Of a stretch of DNA of 64,000 nt, positions 14,320 to 21,319 are shown one piece after another. The notes beneath the pieces were generated by a model. The model made no database searches, was not told the origin of the DNA, and was given only the letters and a program-made list of their open reading frames with translations. The DNA is from Polyangiales bacterium. GTDB taxonomy: Bacteria; Myxococcota_A; Polyangia; Polyangiales; Polyangiaceae. The first letter of the stretch is position 1; each line of letters starts with the position of its first letter. Where the stretch lies: contig JBBRLQ010000001.1 in NCBI GenBank assembly GCA_038231275.1, positions 320,001 through 384,000 on the forward strand, read 5' to 3'. Both the position numbers and the translations under genes were made by a program.

Positions 14320-15974
14320 GTCACGACCTCGCGGATGACCTGGGCGATCGTCATCGGCTTGTACGCTAGCGCGCGGGCGAGGATGCGTCGAACCGCGAGG
14401 CGCGCGGCCTCGGCGATCGCGGCGTCGTCGGCGCTTCGAGGGAGCCCGGCGACCGCGGCGATCACCTCACGGCGGGCGTCGGCGAGGAGAGCGGCCTCGG
14501 TCCCTTCGTCGAGGACGCCGCGCGTGGCGAGTCGAACGTCGCGCGCGCGGCCGTCCGCGCCGACGATCACCGCGCACGAGACGATGCCCCCCTCGGCGAG
14601 CACCTCACGATCGCGGAGGACCGCCTTCGGAATCGCGCGGCCGCCGAAGACGTGGACGCGGCCGGCAGGGACGGTGCCGCCGCGAGCGATGCCCGATGCG
14701 GTCAGCTCGCCGACCTGGCCGTTCTCGAGGACGAGCACCTCTCCGACGCCGACCTCGCGCGCGAGCGCCGCGTGGCGATCGAGGTGATGGCGCGTGCCGT
14801 GAACCGGAATGAAGGCGCGCGGGCGGACGAGCTCCAGCATTCGCCGCTGCTCGGCGCGGTGCGCGTGCCCGCTGACGTGGATGCCGCGATCGGTCGCGCG
14901 CGTCCGCACGGTGACCCCGCGACGCAGGAGGTCGCCGAAGATGGCGTACACCTCGGGCTCGCGTCCGGGGATGATGCGGCTCGACAGCACGACGGTGTCT
15001 CCCTCGCCGAGCGCGAGGCCGGGATGCTCGCCGCGTGAGAGTCGAGCGAGCGCCGCGCTGGCCTCGCCCTGCGATCCGGTCGCGACGCCGAGGATGCGCT
15101 CCTTTGGGAGCTCTCGCGCACGATCGGCCGGAAAAACAAGGTCGCTGGGCCAGTCCAGGTACCCCGTCGCGTGCGCGACGCGCGAGTGCGTGCCGACGCT
15201 GCGCCCGAGGAGGACGAGCTTGCGCCCGGTCTTCTTCGCGATGTCGCCGAGGAGGCGGAGGCGATGGACGTTGGACGCGAAAATAGCGACGACCACCGCG
15301 CCCTTCGCGTCGCGCACGATCGGCTCGAGCGCGTCGCCCACGCCGATCTCGTCGCCCGCGTACCCCTCGGAGTCGATGTTGGTGGAGTCGCTGAAGAGGA
15401 GCGCGACGCCGGCGTCTCCCAGCTCCGCGAGTCGCGCGGTGTCGAACGCCTCGCCGTCGGTCGGCGCCTCGTCGAATTTGAAATCGCCGGAGTGGACGAC
15501 GGTCCCCACCGCGGTGGTGATGGCGAGCGCCGTCGCGTCGGCGATGGAGTGGGTGACGCGGATCGGCTCCACCACGAACGGCCCGACCTGGTAGCGCGTG
15601 CGCGGCGTGATCGCGACGAGGTTCGCGTGCTCGAGGACCTCGTGCTCGCCGAGCCGCTCGCGCACGAGCCCCAGCGCGTACGGCGGCGCCCACACCGGCA
15701 CGTCGAACCGGCGCAAGAGGTACGGCAGCGCGCCGATGTGATCCTCGTGCCCGTGCGTGACGAAGACGCCGCAGATACGGTCGCGGTACGCGTCGAGCGC
15801 CGAGAACTCCGGGTGCACGACGTCGACCCCGAGGCCGCGGTCGTCGAACGTGACGCCGCAGTCGACGAGCATGACCTGCCCGCCCTGCTCGAAGGCCATG
15901 CAGTTCATGCCGATCTCCCCCAGGCCTCCGAGGGGAAAAATGCGCAGAACGGCGGGGGACGGCGTCGCCACCAT
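14316..15974 (-). CDS. rnj: Ribonuclease J
   Basis: PLGGLGEIGMN, THGHEDHIG, VTHSIAD, SGDFK, DSTN, GSQGE, HVSGHA, PVHG. Confidence 0.95.
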   Translation of the reverse strand: MVATPSPAVLRIFPLGGLGEIGMNCMAFEQGGQVMLVDCGVTFDDRGLGVDVVHPEFSALDAYRDRICGVFVTHGHEDHIGALPYLLRRFDVPVWAPPYALGLVRERLGEHEVLEHANLVAITPRTRYQVGPFVVEPIRVTHSIADATALAITTAVGTVVHSGDFKFDEAPTDGEAFDTARLAELGDAGVALLFSDSTNIDSEGYAGDEIGVGDALEPIVRDAKGAVVVAIFASNVHRLRLLGDIAKKTGRKLVLLGRSVGTHSRVAHATGYLDWPSDLVFPADRARELPKERILGVATGSQGEASAALARLSRGEHPGLALGEGDTVVLSSRIIPGREPEVYAIFGDLLRRGVTVRTRATDRGIHVSGHAHRAEQRRMLELVRPRAFIPVHGTRHHLDRHAALAREVGVGEVLVLENGQVGELTASGIARGGTVPAGRVHVFGGRAIPKAVLRDREVLAEGGIVSCAVIVGADGRARDVRLATRGVLDEGTEAALLADARREVIAAVAGLPRSADDAAIAEAARLAVRRILARALAYKPMTIAQVIREVVT

Positions 15975-16025
15975 GGGCGAGGCTTCTAGCACGCGCCGCG
16001 CGCTGATACGCTACACGCTCGGCGC

Positions 16026-16940
16026 ATGGGCACCCTCGACAACAGGCGGTTCGTCATCGTCACCGGCAAGGGGGGCGTCGGGAAGACCACGGTGTGCGCG
16101 GCGTTGGCCGTCCACCTCGCGCAGCGCGGCAAGAGGGTGCTCGTGGCGATGTGCAACGCCAAGGAGCGCCTCTCGGCGATGCTCGGGAGCGATCTCATCG
16201 GCGCCGACGTCTCGAACGTCGCCCAGAACATCTGGGCCGTGAACATGGACCCCGAGCGCGCCGTCGAGGACTACGGGCTCATGACCCTCAAGTCGCGCAC
16301 GGTGTTCAAGCTCCTCTTCGACAACAAATACGTGCGGACCTTTTTCAGCGCCGTGCCAGGTCTCCACGAGTGGGCGATGCTCGGCAAAGCGTGGTGGCAC
16401 ACGACGGAGACGGACGAGACCGGCGCGCTCAAGTACGACACGGTCATCCTCGACGCGCCGGCGACGGGACACGGCCTCGACATGCTCCGCGTGCCCAAGG
16501 TGATCGTGGACGTCGTGCCACCGGGTCTCCTCCGTCGCGACGCCGAGCGCGCGTGGGCGCTCTTCCAAGACCCCAAGGCGTGCGCCGTCGTGCTCGTGAC
16601 GCTGCCCGAAGAGATGCCGACGACCGAGACGATCGAGCTTGCTGCAGCGCTTGGAGAGCTGCAGCTCCCGATCGCGCAGATCGTGGTGAACGGCGTGCTC
16701 CCTCCTCTCTTCTCGCGCCCCGAACGGGAGGCCCTCGAGAAGCACGCGGAGGGCGGGACCGCGCCGGGTGACGCGGCGATCGACGCGGGAAAGCACCGGG
16801 CGACGCGCGAGCGCGTGCAGGCCGAGAGCCTGGGACGCCTCGCCAAAGAGCTGCCGATCTCTCCGTCTTTTCTCCCGCTCCTCTTCGAGGACGCCGCAAA
16901 CCCGGCGGCGATTCGCGAGCTCGCCAAGCGCATCGGTTGA
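16026..16940 (+). CDS. ArsA/Get3-family P-loop ATPase
   Basis: GKGGVGKTT deviant Walker A; DAPATGH switch II; VTLPEEMP. Confidence 0.9.
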   Translation: MGTLDNRRFVIVTGKGGVGKTTVCAALAVHLAQRGKRVLVAMCNAKERLSAMLGSDLIGADVSNVAQNIWAVNMDPERAVEDYGLMTLKSRTVFKLLFDNKYVRTFFSAVPGLHEWAMLGKAWWHTTETDETGALKYDTVILDAPATGHGLDMLRVPKVIVDVVPPGLLRRDAERAWALFQDPKACAVVLVTLPEEMPTTETIELAAALGELQLPIAQIVVNGVLPPLFSRPEREALEKHAEGGTAPGDAAIDAGKHRATRERVQAESLGRLAKELPISPSFLPLLFEDAANPAAIRELAKRIG

Positions 16941-16965
16941 CTTCGTGTAAGTTCCACACGATTCT
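16937..16965 (+). promoter_or_regulatory. Promoter of nrtR with NrtR-type operator (TCGTGT-N7-ACACGA, 16943-16961) in the spacer
   Basis: TTGACT-N17-GATTCT ending 6 nt before the GTG; perfect 6-bp inverted repeat with GT-N7-AC core. Confidence 0.7.
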
Positions 16966-16971
16966 CCGGCC

Positions 16972-17679
16972 GTGCCCTACACCTACGACTACCCGCGGCC
17001 GGCCGTCACGGCGGACGCCTGCATCTTCACGATGCATGGGGACGATCTCGCGGTGCTCCTCATCAAACGAAAGGGGCAGCCGTTCAAGGGGCACTGGGCC
17101 CTTCCGGGCGGCTTCGTCGACAAGAACGAGTCTCTCGAGAAGGCGGCGGCGCGCGAGCTCGAGGAGGAGACCGGGCTCACCGGCGTGGCGTTCGAGCAGC
17201 TCGCGGCGTTCGGCGATCCGGGCCGTGACCCGCGCGCGCACACCGTCACGATCGTGTTTTTCACATTCATCCACGCCGAGGCCGCGATCGTTCACGCGGG
17301 GGACGACGCGGCGGAGGTCGCGTGGCACCCGCTTCGCACACTGCCGCTCGACGGCGCGACCCGCGCGTCGATGCCCCGCCTCGCGTTCGATCACGCGCGC
17401 ATCTTGAACCTCGCGCGGCACCGCCTGCAGGAGCGCTTGCGCGATCCCGCCCGTGAGTCGTCGTTCCAGCTGGTGCCGCAACATTTCACGCTGACCGAGC
17501 TCCAGCGCGTCTACGAGGCCGTGCTCGGGCACGAGCTCGACAAGCGAAACTTCCGCGCCCGCTTCGTCGGGCGCGGGATCGTCGAGCCCGTCGCCGCGCG
17601 TCGCACCGGGAAGCATCGCCCCGCGCAGCTTTACCGATGGACCGTTGCGAAGCGGCGCACGCGCGCGCGAACCGCCTGA
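16972..17679 (+). CDS. nrtR: NrtR-family transcriptional regulator (Nudix + winged HTH)
   Basis: WALPGGFV..ARELEEETG, DPGRDPR, LAFDH, FTLTELQRVYEAVLG..DKRNFR, HRPAQLY. Confidence 0.9.
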   Translation: MPYTYDYPRPAVTADACIFTMHGDDLAVLLIKRKGQPFKGHWALPGGFVDKNESLEKAAARELEEETGLTGVAFEQLAAFGDPGRDPRAHTVTIVFFTFIHAEAAIVHAGDDAAEVAWHPLRTLPLDGATRASMPRLAFDHARILNLARHRLQERLRDPARESSFQLVPQHFTLTELQRVYEAVLGHELDKRNFRARFVGRGIVEPVAARRTGKHRPAQLYRWTVAKRRTRARTA

Positions 17680-17712
17680 GGTCCAAAAAGGCGCTCTGGT
17701 ACTATCGCCCCG

Positions 17713-19152
17713 ATGTCCGCCCCGCATCCCATGCCTCCGAGCGTCTTGTCGCTCGACCTCGACGCGTTCGTGACCATCGCCGCGGCGATCCATCAGGGTC
17801 ACGCCGAAGCGCGGGCCACGTTCGAGTGCACGCTCGAGGCTCCGACGAAGAACCTCGGGTTCATGGTCCTCGCCGGCCTCGATCCGCTGCTGGATGCACT
17901 CGAGCGGTTCAAGCCCAAGCCCGAAGAGATCGAGTGGCTCGCGTCGATCGGCGCGATCGACGACGCCACGCGGCAGCTCCTCGGCGAGACGCGCTTCGCG
18001 TGCGACGTCGACGCGGCGCCCGAGGGCAGCGTCGTGTTCTCCGGAGAGCCTGTGCTCGCGGTCGAGGGCCCGTTCTGGCAAGCGCAGCTCGTCGGAGGCC
18101 TCGTCACGCGCGCGCTCACGCAGGCGACACTCGTGGCGACGCAGATGGCGCGCTGCGCGCTGGCGGCCGACGGGCGCGAGGTCATCGAGACCGGCGCGTC
18201 GAGCGCGTACGGACTCGCGGGCGGCACTCTCCTCGCCCGCGCGGCGTACATCGGCGGCGCCGGCGCGACGACATGCGCGCTCGCCGGTCGAAGGTACGAC
18301 GTCCCGTTGCGCGCCCCCCAGCCCGCGCGCGCGCTCACCGTGGCCGCGAGCGACGTCGCGACGTTCGAGAGCTGGCTGCAGGCCGCCCCCGCGCACGCGA
18401 CCCTTCGCATCGACGCCCACGACGCGCGCAAAGCGCTCGACCAGGCCGCGCGCGCGATCAAGAAAATCCACGGCAACGATAGCTGGGAGAAGCTCGGCTA
18501 CGCGCTCGAGGTGGCGGCCGGCGATCACGTCGAGGTCGCGCGCGCCGCGCTGCGCATCTTCCGCGCGCACGGCCTCAAGGAGCCGCTCCTCGTCGCGTCG
18601 GGCGGCCTCGACGAGTGGCGCATCGCCGAGCTCCGGCGCGAAGAGCCGCGCTTCGCCGCGTTCTCGGTCGACTCCCTCCTGCCCAACGGCGCCACGCGCA
18701 TTGCGCGCTACGATCTCGTCGCGATGGAAGAGGACGGCCGATGGGCGCCGCGCCTCCGCCTCGGCGACACCGTCCTCGCCTCGACGAACCCCGGCCGTAA
18801 GAAGGTGCTCCGCTACGTCGACGCCGACGGCCACCCGGTGTGCGACGTGCTCCACGCCGCGAACGAGCGCATCCAAGCGTCGAAGGACGCGCGCTTCGTG
18901 CACCGCGTCACAGGCTTCACGACGAAGGTGAGCGCGACGTCGAGCGCGCCGCTCCACGGCAACGTCATGCGGAGCGGCAGTCGCGTCGCCGCCGCCGAGA
19001 GCCCCGCCGTGAGCCGCGCTCGTGCACGCGCCGCCGTCGCGTCGCTCCGAAGCCCGAACCTCCGCCTCACGCGACCCGCGGTCTACCCCGTCGGCGCGAC
19101 CACGTCGCTCACCGCCCTCAAGGCGAAGCTCGTCGAAGAAGCGCTCCCCTAG
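17713..19152 (+). CDS. Nicotinate phosphoribosyltransferase (PncB)-like protein with degenerate active site
   Basis: Scaffold motifs AGL, APEG..VFSGEP, QAQL, RAAYIGG, VASGGLDE, TNPGRKKV retained; catalytic motifs replaced. Confidence 0.8.
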   Translation: MSAPHPMPPSVLSLDLDAFVTIAAAIHQGHAEARATFECTLEAPTKNLGFMVLAGLDPLLDALERFKPKPEEIEWLASIGAIDDATRQLLGETRFACDVDAAPEGSVVFSGEPVLAVEGPFWQAQLVGGLVTRALTQATLVATQMARCALAADGREVIETGASSAYGLAGGTLLARAAYIGGAGATTCALAGRRYDVPLRAPQPARALTVAASDVATFESWLQAAPAHATLRIDAHDARKALDQAARAIKKIHGNDSWEKLGYALEVAAGDHVEVARAALRIFRAHGLKEPLLVASGGLDEWRIAELRREEPRFAAFSVDSLLPNGATRIARYDLVAMEEDGRWAPRLRLGDTVLASTNPGRKKVLRYVDADGHPVCDVLHAANERIQASKDARFVHRVTGFTTKVSATSSAPLHGNVMRSGSRVAAAESPAVSRARARAAVASLRSPNLRLTRPAVYPVGATTSLTALKAKLVEEALP

Positions 19153-19175
19153 CTTCTGGTGGTCGAAGAAATGAC

Positions 19176-19213
19176 GAAGGCCCCTCTCCGCGGCGCGCGA
19201 AGAAGGGCCATCG
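19176..19213. terminator. GC-rich hairpin between convergent pncB-like and sod genes
   Basis: GGCCCCTCT...AGAAGGGCC imperfect stem; no clear U tract. Confidence 0.4.
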
Positions 19214-19237
19214 GTGCATTCTGCAACTATCGGGCGT

Positions 19238-19846
19238 CTACTTTGCGTTGGCCGGGAGCATCGACTCGGCGCGCTTCTCGACGACGTCCCAGTTGATGTT
19301 GTCCCAGAACTTGGCGAGGTAGTCCGGGCGCTTCGTCGCGTAGTCGAGGAAGTACGCGTGCTCGAACTCGTCGAGGATGAGCAGCGGGATGGCGAGCCAC
19401 GGCGTGTGGTTCTGGTGCTGCTCGACGACGTACACGTGGCTCTTGTGATCGAGGAACGACCACGCCCACACCGCCCAACCCACCGGCGCGACCTTGCCGC
19501 CGCCGAGGAGCTGCGCCTTGAAGTTGTCGAGGTTGCCGAAGTGCGCGTTGATCAGCTTCTCGGTGATCTTGCCGGGCTTGGTGCCGGTGCCGCCGAGGTT
19601 CTCGAAATACATCTCGTGGAGGACGACGCCGTTGTGCGCCCACGTCTCGCGGCGCTTCAGCTCGCCCCACTCGGAGTAGTGCGGGTTCGCCTTCGACACG
19701 TCCGCCTTCTCGAGCGCGGCTTGGATGTTGTTGTACTGGGTGACGTAGCCCTTGTAGAGGACGTCGCGGTGCTCGGTCAGCGCTCTCTCGGAGAGAAAGC
19801 CCTCGACCTTTCCCTCGAGAGGGAACGACTTCGGTTCGATCGCCAT
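19238..19846 (-). CDS. Fe/Mn superoxide dismutase family protein (ChrC-like variant)
   Basis: H..LYKGYV, NGVVLHEMYFENLG, GWA, LILDEFEHAYFLDY, NINWDVV. Confidence 0.85.
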   Translation of the reverse strand: MAIEPKSFPLEGKVEGFLSERALTEHRDVLYKGYVTQYNNIQAALEKADVSKANPHYSEWGELKRRETWAHNGVVLHEMYFENLGGTGTKPGKITEKLINAHFGNLDNFKAQLLGGGKVAPVGWAVWAWSFLDHKSHVYVVEQHQNHTPWLAIPLLILDEFEHAYFLDYATKRPDYLAKFWDNINWDVVEKRAESMLPANAK

Positions 19847-20323: not shown

Positions 20324-21319
20324 ATGAAGAGATTGATCGTGGGGCTCGGCATCTCGCTCGGGGCGGTCGTCGCGGCGCTGGCGTGCAGCGGAAAGACGAC
20401 CGAGGTGAGCGGCGGCGACGGAGGCTCGAGCAGCGGGACGAGCGGCACTTCGGGCGGGACCAGCGGATCGAGCGGCGGTTCGAGCGGATCGAGCGGAGGC
20501 CTCGTTTCGGGCTGTCCGGCGTCTCCGCCGACGGGCGGCGACGCGTGCAAGTCTGCGCAGCTCCAGTGCGAGTACGGAACGGACACGCGGCCGCTCTGCA
20601 ACACGATCGCGACGTGCGACGGCAGCAAGTGGAACGTCACGCCGCCACAGCAAGCGGGCTGCCCCACACCTCCGCCCGGCCCCTCGTGCCCGGCGAGCTA
20701 CGCAGCAGTCCCGGTGGGCTCGACGTGCACGACCGCGCAGAGCTGCACGTACCCCCAGGGAACGTGCTCGTGCGAGATCTACTGCGGACCACAAGGCCCG
20801 GTTGGTCGCGTATGCGACGCGGGGACTCCGCTCACGTGGGTCTGCACCGGTGCCTCGAACGGCTGCCCGGCGATTCGCCCCCACGCCGGCACGGCGTGCA
20901 CGCAGGAACAGCAATTTTGCTCCTACGGCGACTGCAGCGAGCCCGCGATGCGATGCGTGAACGGGGCATGGCAGCTTCAGCAGCAAGGCTGCCCCGTCTC
21001 GACGCGGACGAAGAAGCAAGAGATCCGCTACCTCGACGAGGCGGACCTGCAGGCGCTCACCGATCGCACGCTCTCGACGCGCCTCGCGACGTACCGCTAC
21101 ACGTCCGGTGATCCGTCGCAGCACCTCGGCTTCATCATCGAGGACGATCCGGAGAGCCCCGCGGTCATGAGCGATCGCGGTCACGTCGATCTCTACGCGT
21201 ACTCGAGCATGGCGGTGGCAACGCTGCAGATGCAAGGACGCGAGATCGCCGAGCTCCGGCGCGAGGTCGACGCGCTGAAGCGCGAGATCGACGCCTCGCG
21301 CAAAGCGCCTAAAAAATAG
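20324..21319 (+). CDS. Cys-rich repeat lipoprotein with C-terminal intramolecular chaperone (peptidase S74-like) domain
   Basis: GAGGAG RBS; lipobox ALAC; three CP..G..C..C.Y..C..W repeats; STRTKKQEI, YRY, LGFIIED, VDLY, terminal coiled coil. Confidence 0.8.
   Translation: MKRLIVGLGISLGAVVAALACSGKTTEVSGGDGGSSSGTSGTSGGTSGSSGGSSGSSGGLVSGCPASPPTGGDACKSAQLQCEYGTDTRPLCNTIATCDGSKWNVTPPQQAGCPTPPPGPSCPASYAAVPVGSTCTTAQSCTYPQGTCSCEIYCGPQGPVGRVCDAGTPLTWVCTGASNGCPAIRPHAGTACTQEQQFCSYGDCSEPAMRCVNGAWQLQQQGCPVSTRTKKQEIRYLDEADLQALTDRTLSTRLATYRYTSGDPSQHLGFIIEDDPESPAVMSDRGHVDLYAYSSMAVATLQMQGREIAELRREVDALKREIDASRKAPKK

Follow-up and report, generated by a model that had tools for sequence, protein, structure and literature searches.

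The DNA analysed here, called the window throughout, is a stretch of 64,000 nucleotides from a Polyangiales bacterium (contig JBBRLQ010000001.1). It carries the gene order RNase J (minus strand), ArsA/Get3/BagA-like ATPase (plus), NrtR (plus), an open reading frame (ORF) at 17713-19152 (plus), and a gene similar to Fe/Mn superoxide dismutase (SOD; minus). The ORF, which is the subject of this work, encodes a relative of nicotinate phosphoribosyltransferase (NAPRTase, PncB) that has apparently lost the active-site residues of its family, and we call it the pseudoenzyme. An earlier reading of the sequence alone (the sequence-only reading) had described an intact frame of 479 amino acids. The frame is indeed intact, with an ATG start and 479 codons without an internal stop, in DNA of about 70% G+C; the public gene call (P0001, 473 amino acids) begins at the ATG at 17731, six codons downstream of the 17713 start. 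The gene is made up as follows:

17713..19152, plus strand: NAPRTase-fold pseudoenzyme ORF, 479 amino acids, ATG start, assigned by Pfam, NCBIfam, phmmer, AlphaFold2 (AF2) and Foldseek.
17755..18093, plus strand: residues 15-127 (Pfam NAPRTase_N), which form the N-terminal part of the open-faced sandwich and are conserved throughout the pseudoenzyme clade.
18103..18747, plus strand: former catalytic alpha/beta barrel, residues about 131-345, with A162, S163, A205, R206, E266 and D334 at six of the seven active-site positions known from the Enterococcus faecalis enzyme.
18796..19122, plus strand: residues 362-470 (Pfam NAPRTase_C), which form the C-terminal part of the sandwich and include the clade-specific R362, Y368, D370, H381, R386, R420 and R424.

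The protein was compared with profiles and structures of the family. It is colinear with TIGR01513 from end to end (residues 14-464 against positions 4-450 of 452) and scores 258.8 bits against a cut-off of 297.4; all nine NCBIfam NAPRTase models that match it do so below their own cut-offs, and a Pfam scan of the 479 residues gave no match to the catalytic family PF04095 at E<=0.01. The best solved relative was the NAPRTase of E. faecalis (2f7f_A; phmmer E 2e-35, residues 27-476 against 27-478). An AF2 model computed from the A1 alignment of 63 sequences had a predicted local distance difference test (pLDDT) score of 90.9 and a predicted template-modelling (TM) score (pTM) of 0.91. When the model was submitted to Foldseek, 2f7f was the top match (TM 0.89, root-mean-square deviation 2.7 A, 25% identity), and human NAPRT (4yub) gave TM values of 0.74-0.76. 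The end-to-end colinearity with PncB noticed in the sequence-only reading is thus upheld by the profile, by the alignment to 2f7f_A and by the modelled fold. An ESM Atlas search with the pseudoenzyme returned NAPRTase clusters only, and neither PADLOC nor PHROGs gave a match. As modelled, the scaffold is whole and the NAPRTase fold complete, and the motifs are gone.

In the account given in PMC4442680, the active site of the E. faecalis enzyme consists of Y17, T162, R163, H205, S206, R262 and K333, corresponding to Y21, L170, R171, H213, S214, R318 and K396 of the human enzyme, and the Tyr and the Lys (human Y21 and K396) are contributed by the other monomer. We compared these positions in two alignments, one made by phmmer to 2f7f_A, in which the chain numbering agrees with the residue numbers given in PMC4442680, and one made by MAFFT with canonical homologues from related genomes. 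None of the seven residues is kept: D17, A162, S163, A205, R206, E266 and D334 stand in their places. Both alignments also bear out the eight motif changes listed earlier by eye, namely TDxY to LDLD, FGxRR to TGASS, TSN to TTC, GTxAH to APQPA, DTY to DAH, RxDSG to EVAAG, GVGT to SVDS and YKL to YDL. Judged by these alignments, no residue that binds nicotinate, phosphoribosyl pyrophosphate (PRPP) or ATP, or that carries the phospho-histidine, is retained. Among 122 NAPRTase homologues that lie outside the clade described below and whose divergence is similar to or greater than that of the query, Y17, R163, H205, R262 and K333 are kept in 114, 118, 120, 120 and 116, respectively, so the loss exceeds what divergence alone gives.

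The same substitutions were looked for in relatives. A search over 5.8 billion proteins gave 208 matches, of which 120 were listed. PF17767 is present in every one of the matches listed and PF17956 in almost every one, and PF04095 is absent from them all; their source names include Polyangiaceae, Myxococcales and Pendulispora (Pendulispora species in NCBI records), and many of the records from the Joint Genome Institute (JGI) label the homologues 'nicotinate phosphoribosyltransferase'. We aligned 113 of the 119 non-self proteins, six of less than 440 amino acids being dropped. The canonical residue at positions 17, 163, 205, 266 and 334 is kept in 0, 0, 1, 0 and 0 of the 113 homologues, and the counts are the same for 26 genomic loci; orthologues with the same losses therefore exist, and Y17, R163, R262 and K333 (positions 17, 163, 266 and 334 here) are found in none of either set. 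At some former motif sites there is no longer any constraint on the residues, so that FGxRR, for instance, is replaced by DGAAT, AGASS, ASAAT etc. Other former catalytic positions are now conserved as acids, D/E17 in 106 of the homologues, E266 in 101 and D/E334 in 103, and new residues have become conserved, R232 in 111, W221 in 112, R194 in 113 and R193, as R or K, in 113.

Phylogenetic trees were then calculated. A profile search over 1.84 billion cluster representatives gave 5412 matches at E<=1e-3. A FastTree of 161 rows was made from 124 of 149 new representatives (380-560 amino acids), 14 family members and 23 sequences from the window and the fetched loci, and six motifs were scored in each row. 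It was found that 39 of the 41 rows with no motif or one motif make up one clade (support 100, stem 0.94), the remaining two, P0141 and P0258, being isolated degenerate forms elsewhere in the tree. In an IQ-TREE analysis (LG+C20+F+G4, short search) of 69 selected rows, all 22 pseudoenzyme rows fell on one side of a branch from the 47 canonical rows, with an approximate likelihood-ratio support (SH-aLRT) of 100, and the sister of the clade was the canonical pair P0130/L070 (support 96). Three subclades could be distinguished, the full-length one of the query, a 'third' one (L046-L048) and a short one of about 400-450 amino acids; they are about 30-35% identical to one another, and 35 columns are invariant in the 63 sequences of the A1 alignment. 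On this sequence evidence the pseudoenzymes form a single old clade with shared losses and one origin.

When 301 genomes sampled from the phylum were searched, matches at E<=1e-95 were confined to the GTDB family of the window and to G144, whose protein proved to be canonical; in the genomes sampled, the clade was seen in this one family of Myxococcota only. Of the 121 genomes of the family, 22 gave an A1 profile match of at least 340 bits, the motif states being read in the fetched ones only. No fused form of the pseudoenzyme appeared at E<=1e-40 in a search for longer proteins, which is weak evidence; the long representatives P0128, P0136, P0176, P0187, P0192, P0208, P0219, P0252, P0262 and P0265 are all canonical, and eight of these ten are isochorismatase (PncA-type) fusions. 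Outside the clade, P0141, P0168, P0190 and P0258 are isolated and independently degenerate NAPRTase homologues that keep one or two of the six motifs, P0141 and P0190 branching next to canonical L043. NAPRTases may thus have lost catalysis more than once.

The ratio of nonsynonymous to synonymous substitution rates (dN/dS) was calculated by the Nei-Gojobori method (NG86) for 27 coding sequences, those of the window and of the 26 loci; the DNA is GC-rich and the values are pairwise estimates only. In the six closest pairs dN/dS was 0.12-0.23 (window and L004, 0.18), and by domain it was 0.07-0.25 for the N-terminal part, 0.13-0.21 for the barrel and 0.15-0.30 for the C-terminal part. For the neighbouring genes in the same pairs we obtained 0.13-0.30 for the ArsA-like ATPase (five pairs), 0.07-0.28 for NrtR (four pairs), and 0.17 and 0.24 for RNase J, for which two more pairs gave no value and two were missing. 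The pseudoenzyme gene is far from neutrality and resembles its neighbours; it is under purifying selection. The low ratio, which extends to the former barrel, and the clade-wide losses both support the sequence-only reading in its view that the changes are not random decay.

Conservation is unevenly spread along the protein. Columns at least 80% identical across the 39 clade rows lie in the N-domain (34-124), in the first barrel segment (142-198) and in the C-domain (335-466), and there is none between residues 199 and 300. Residues conserved specifically in the clade include D/E334, E339, W344, R347, R362, Y368, D370, H381, R386, R420 and R424. In each of the 19 short forms examined, 55-90 residues are missing from the stretch of about 199-330. 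Position 17 is R in the short forms. In both trees the short group P0116-P0120 and P0122 is nested in the full-length subclade beside the 489-amino-acid P0040, which means that the barrel core was deleted at least twice independently. From these comparisons the barrel core appears to be dispensable in the clade, and since it is repeatedly deleted and not conserved clade-wide, we favour a function that is non-catalytic and resides in the sandwich domain and at the surface between subunits. An AF2 model of the short form P0177 (10-row alignment) had a pLDDT of 67.3, with values below 50 for 127 residues, and its N-terminal half alone is usable.

A canonical pncB elsewhere in the genome, which the sequence-only reading had suggested looking for, was found. 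This paralogue, G000:C6 (470 amino acids), has FGQRR, GTMDH, DTYD and RIDS; its five key positions are occupied by Y, R, H, R and K, and it matches PF04095 with 25 bits against a cut-off of 20.8; the gene after it encodes a CN_hydrolase and NAD_synthase protein (glutamine-dependent NAD synthetase, nadE). By sequence, G000:C6 is likely the working NAPRTase of the genome, and the pseudoenzyme is about 24-26% identical to it. We probed the genomes that carry the pseudoenzyme for active phosphoribosyltransferases (PRTases) with TIGR01513 (E<=1e-8) and PF04095 (E<=1e-5); PF04095 is too insensitive for long-type NAPRTases and missed the genome's own C6 at E<=1e-5, and TIGR01513 was added for this reason. 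The co-resident enzyme is of the C6 type in G000, G019, G021, G023 and G098, of a distant 'type 4' (TDGYK, GTMGHE, DTFD, RYDSGD, YKL) in G071, G045, G037, G108, G104 and G117, and a NamPT in G120 and G057, and of 18 genomes with short forms 17 also carry a canonical gene of the A type, so that the active enzymes span four lineages. Only PRTase fragments were seen in G078, G025 and G100, and no active PRTase was found by these probes in G031, G080 and G111 (96-98% complete) or in G010, G064 and G017 (less than 85% complete). Many genomes of the family carry a canonical gene and no pseudoenzyme. The 'type 4' lineage (L053 G071:C1, L054 G045:C3, L055 G037:C40) has about 480 amino acids, reaches only about 100 bits with TIGR01513 and forms a very long branch (2.98); it seems to be the sole candidate active enzyme in several genomes. 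In G056 (C11:2332974-2334270) a canonical-type NAPRTase gene is split over two adjacent frames (ORFs of 218 and 256 amino acids), by a frameshift or an assembly error.

The following features surround the pseudoenzyme gene in the window:

16026..16940, plus strand: ArsA/Get3/BagA-like P-loop ATPase, a syntenic neighbour found in 114 of 121 family genomes, whether or not these carry the pseudoenzyme.
16937..16965, plus strand: candidate nrtR promoter read by eye, with a -35-like TTGACT at 16937-16942, a 17-nucleotide spacer filled by the palindrome and a weak -10-like GATTCT at 16960-16965.
16943..16961, no strand assigned: perfect palindrome TCGTGT-N7-ACACGA with a GT-N7-AC core, a candidate NrtR operator by sequence, conservation and the motif reported in PMC2330246.
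16972..17679, plus strand: NrtR gene with NUDIX and NrtR winged-helix domains (Pfam/NCBIfam), 33 bp upstream of the pseudoenzyme gene and on the same strand.
17701..17706, plus strand: TACTAT hexamer.
19238..19846, minus strand: Fe/Mn superoxide dismutase-like gene, a member of the conserved syntenic block.

Of 28 related loci, 16 have an nrtR gene, and in 15 of them it stands directly upstream of the pseudoenzyme gene and in the same orientation; L046-L048 of the third subclade and L052 share this arrangement. The ATPase gene is near the pseudoenzyme gene in 23 of the 28 loci, three of the five exceptions having no upstream DNA, and short and third subclades also adjoin the ATPase and/or NrtR. 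The ATPase gene is found at its usual position in 16 loci of genomes that lack the pseudoenzyme, and in seven of them it is still followed by nrtR. The block from RNase J through the ATPase, NrtR and the pseudoenzyme to SOD is inherited synteny, and for that reason we give weight only to the pair of nrtR and the pseudoenzyme gene, with its 33-bp gap, and to the known link of NrtR to NAD-salvage genes. Within this bacterial family NrtR also has canonical NAPRTase genes in its vicinity (L033, L035, L036 and L043).

NrtR sites are described in PMC2330246 as palindromes with a GT-N7-AC core. The sequence that separates the stop codon of the ATPase gene from the start of nrtR contains TTGACT, TCGTGT-AAGTTCC-ACACGA and TTCT (16937-16965). 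Besides the window, five distinct relatives (L004, L006, L007, L011 and L020) have an exact copy of the palindrome upstream of nrtR, and it occurs with at most one mismatch in L021 and in L048, which belongs to the third subclade; the arrangement of TTGAC followed by the palindrome recurs in L004, L006, L007 and L048. Only two exact copies exist in the 9.28-Mb genome. Within the window it occurs once without mismatch, and matches with up to two mismatches are at chance level. It precedes nrtR and not the pseudoenzyme gene. This layout fits autoregulation by NrtR from a predicted operator, with the pseudoenzyme gene as a second cistron in a predicted co-transcript. The sequence-only reading had given the gene its own -10 element, TACTAT. 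The hexamer is real; a promoter role for it is not supported, as it is not conserved in relatives and lies outside any detected promoter, a strict sigma-70 scan giving no promoter-like site in 15800-19400. From the arrangement of the genes it is more likely that the pseudoenzyme gene rides on the nrtR promoter.

Several observations were made in passing on these elements. In L046 (third subclade) three copies of the near-palindrome CGTGGATCGGCCACACC, spaced by 27 bp, lie about 60-114 bp upstream of nrtR and may be a lineage-specific operator array. In the window's own genome 87 sites match CGTGT[AG]-N5-[CT]ACACG with at most one mismatch (e.g. G000:C2:138438-138456, C1:502418, C29:33407 and C3:225211), many of them with a common inner ...TGCAC signature, and this motif may belong to another regulator. 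The NrtR of the window scores 172 bits against the cut-off of 400 of the NCBIfam NtrR equivalog model. Its Nudix box is apparently complete when read against GX5EX7REUXEEXGU, which we take to be the consensus, and by sequence it might also be an active ADP-ribose pyrophosphatase. A second NrtR paralogue (NUDIX and NrtR_WHD) is encoded at G000:C4:329727-330443, which corresponds to 2228-2941 of L069. The protein behind it (L069 3052-4488), also of 479 amino acids, is unrelated to the NAPRTase family (hhalign probability 0.2); it has no Pfam match and a signal-peptide-like N-terminus. The SOD-like gene at 19238-19846 (minus strand) gave a strong Sod_Fe_C match and a Sod_Fe_N match below cut-off (18.4 against 27 bits), and the same syntenic slot in relatives holds two SOD-like types, 83-92% and 28-33% identical to that of the window. 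At 20324-21319 (plus strand) the window encodes a 331-amino-acid protein with a Gly/Ser-rich N-terminal stretch and many cysteines, which is 66% identical in L004.

The explanation we favour, with some reserve, is that the ORF encodes a pseudoenzyme maintained by selection, a paralogue of the long TIGR01513-type NAPRTase, which is probably an accessory of the NrtR regulon and acts without catalysis. The sequence-only reading had proposed that the protein is kept for a role other than NAPRTase catalysis, and the shared losses, the single clade, dN/dS and the canonical paralogue support this; it had left the choice between a non-catalytic role and a new activity, and the dispensable barrel core makes us lean to the former. 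According to the explanation favoured here, the gene would be co-transcribed with nrtR and hence de-repressed when the effector of NrtR rises (ADP-ribose in characterised NrtRs). The protein would act without phosphoribosyl transfer, as a binding or regulatory protein that is probably dimeric, and its working surface would be the sandwich domain of the N- and C-terminal parts together with the old pocket between the subunits, and the barrel core would have no share in it. In full-length members of the clade the pocket, whose geometry was derived solely from alignment to the 2F7F numbering, would be inverted in charge (Y17 to D/E, R262 to E, K333 to D/E) and so unable to bind anionic substrates; it may close on itself by new salt bridges or take up a cationic ligand or a partner. 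The actual salvage reaction of the genome would be carried out by the canonical paralogue beside nadE. A bolder version of this idea, which we regard as doubtful, would make the protein the first regulatory pseudoenzyme of the type II PRTase fold, a dimer induced through NrtR and ADP-ribose whose pocket (D/E17', E266, D/E334') no longer binds anionic nicotinate, PRPP and ATP but senses a cationic pyridine nucleotide (NAD+, nicotinamide mononucleotide or nicotinamide riboside) or a partner protein and tunes NAD salvage or NrtR output in myxobacteria.

Some of the results weigh against the explanation we favour. The pseudoenzyme was not found with the A1 profile in 47 of 121 family genomes and is thus dispensable in evolution. 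No nrtR match lies near the pseudoenzyme gene in 12 of the 28 related loci, and NrtR does not need the pseudoenzyme, because nrtR persists in seven of the 16 loci that lack it. When the palindrome was sought in the rest of the window's genome, no NAD genes were seen at the sites inspected: as a wider NrtR regulon these sites were rejected, since the other exact copy (C2:138438) and the near matches inspected adjoin Hsp70-like/DUF2760, kinase and glucokinase genes. The strict sigma-70 scan missed the candidate nrtR promoter as well. The full-length subfamily keeps a conserved charged set in the old pocket (E159, R193, R194, R232, E266 and D271) that could equally build a new active site, and the non-catalytic mechanism is something we infer.

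A rival explanation is a neofunctionalised enzyme, in which the acidic pocket of the full-length subfamily would catalyse a PRPP-independent reaction on a pyridine or nucleotide substrate. The newly conserved residues line the old pocket (D/E17, E266, D/E334, R232, R194 and W221) and the dN/dS of the barrel is as low as that of the N-domain; however, the clade tolerates the loss of 55-90 barrel residues at least twice, nothing is conserved clade-wide between 199 and 300, short forms have R at position 17, and all known phosphate-binding motifs are gone, with variable residues in their places, so that we consider a new enzyme rather unlikely. Another idea, already raised in the sequence-only reading, is a heterodimer with an active NAPRTase or NamPT, in which the pseudoenzyme would be a regulatory or poison subunit and supply D17 and D334 where the Tyr and the Lys normally act in trans. 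The two positions donated in trans according to PMC4442680 are precisely the conserved acids here, and an active type II PRTase of one kind or another is encoded in most genomes that carry the pseudoenzyme, among them those in which short forms accompany an A-type gene. Nevertheless, because the lineage of the co-resident enzyme varies from genome to genome (C6-type, type 4, NamPT, A-type) and the three genomes that are 96-98% complete (G031, G080 and G111) yield none, a fixed heterodimer is unlikely, and the canonical enzyme does without the pseudoenzyme in many genomes and is a distant paralogue in the window's own genome; such a subunit we take to be quite improbable.

It is very unlikely, in our estimate, that the protein is an adaptor or client of the neighbouring ArsA/Get3/BagA-like ATPase. 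The ATPase gene does stay near in most loci, and inversions have not separated it from the genes of the short and third subclades (L034, L051, L046 and L047), yet it is near-universal and single-copy in the family, including genomes that lack the pseudoenzyme, where it remains beside RNase J; the two genes are on separate contigs in G045, G010, G017, G057, G049, G114, G077 and G036, and inherited synteny covers the whole block. A non-functional relic heading for loss would agree with the patchy distribution, with repeated loss and with the internal stops seen in four matches from relatives among the matches listed (G031, G100, G017 and one short form). This reading is largely refuted and in our opinion has next to no chance, given 479 intact codons in GC-rich DNA, the low dN/dS, a clade of this age that preserves its invariant columns, and a confident and compact AF2 model. 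The idea of an ordinary NAPRTase with shifted or compensated residues missed by the alignments has just as little chance as that of a relic: full-length TIGR01513 colinearity and the JGI label on homologues speak for it, but not one of seven active-site residues is present in two independent alignments with the numbering of the crystal paper, three cationic or aromatic positions are now acidic, and the score is below every NCBIfam NAPRTase cut-off.

NAPRTase and NamPT are textbook enzymes of NAD salvage and are drug targets. If the explanation we favour is true, a non-catalytic layer would be added to bacterial NAD homeostasis, one with a link to NrtR, an inverted pocket and a repeatedly deleted barrel, and the clade would show, as an experiment made by nature, what the fold still needs once catalysis is gone. 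The label 'nicotinate phosphoribosyltransferase' on such proteins would wrongly credit genomes with the Preiss-Handler step; in the three near-complete genomes G031, G080 and G111 the pseudoenzyme is the sole NAPRTase-like gene found. Homologues are named from Pendulispora species in NCBI, so bench tests look feasible.

In the literature searched we found no description of a dead NAPRTase paralogue or of a NAPRTase pseudoenzyme, and the clade is so far undescribed there. The NrtR regulons presented in PMC2330246, whose main text mentions neither myxobacteria nor deltaproteobacteria, are similar to the present case in that a Nudix and winged-helix regulator adjoins a gene of NAD-salvage type with a GT-N7-AC palindrome upstream; the difference is that here, as known from sequence alone, the regulated neighbour cannot be a salvage enzyme. 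The long three-domain type II PRTases, E. faecalis NAPRTase (2F7F/4MZY) and human NAPRT (4YUB), have the same fold and domain order as the query, and the structural residues G55, G105, R147, R176, G182, T186, P360, R367, D378 and G422 are shared with long NAPRTases. Unlike them, the query appears from its sequence to have all seven active-site residues replaced, no PF04095 and an inverted pocket charge, and its relatives have lost part of the barrel. The canonical Myxococcota lineage P0130/L070, with the PncA-PncB fusion P0128, has the PGRK motif in common with the pseudoenzyme clade. In contrast to the query, L070 keeps TDLY, FGLRR, GTMAH, DTYD, RLDSGD, GVGT and YKL and adjoins an isochorismatase-family (PncA-like) gene, not nrtR, and P0128 is an Isochorismatase-NAPRTase fusion with a PF04095 match.

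Phage NamPT-family enzymes of NAD reconstitution (Namat) also place the type II PRTase fold in an ADP-ribose and NAD context; they are active and of the PF04095 type, whereas the query has no PF04095, PHROGs or PADLOC match. A regulatory pseudoenzyme paralogue of a metabolic enzyme is known in HisZ, which is derived from a tRNA synthetase and works with a known partner, the ATP-phosphoribosyltransferase HisG. Like HisZ, the protein described here would be a catalytically dead paralogue under selection, but its phyletic pattern argues against a fixed active partner.

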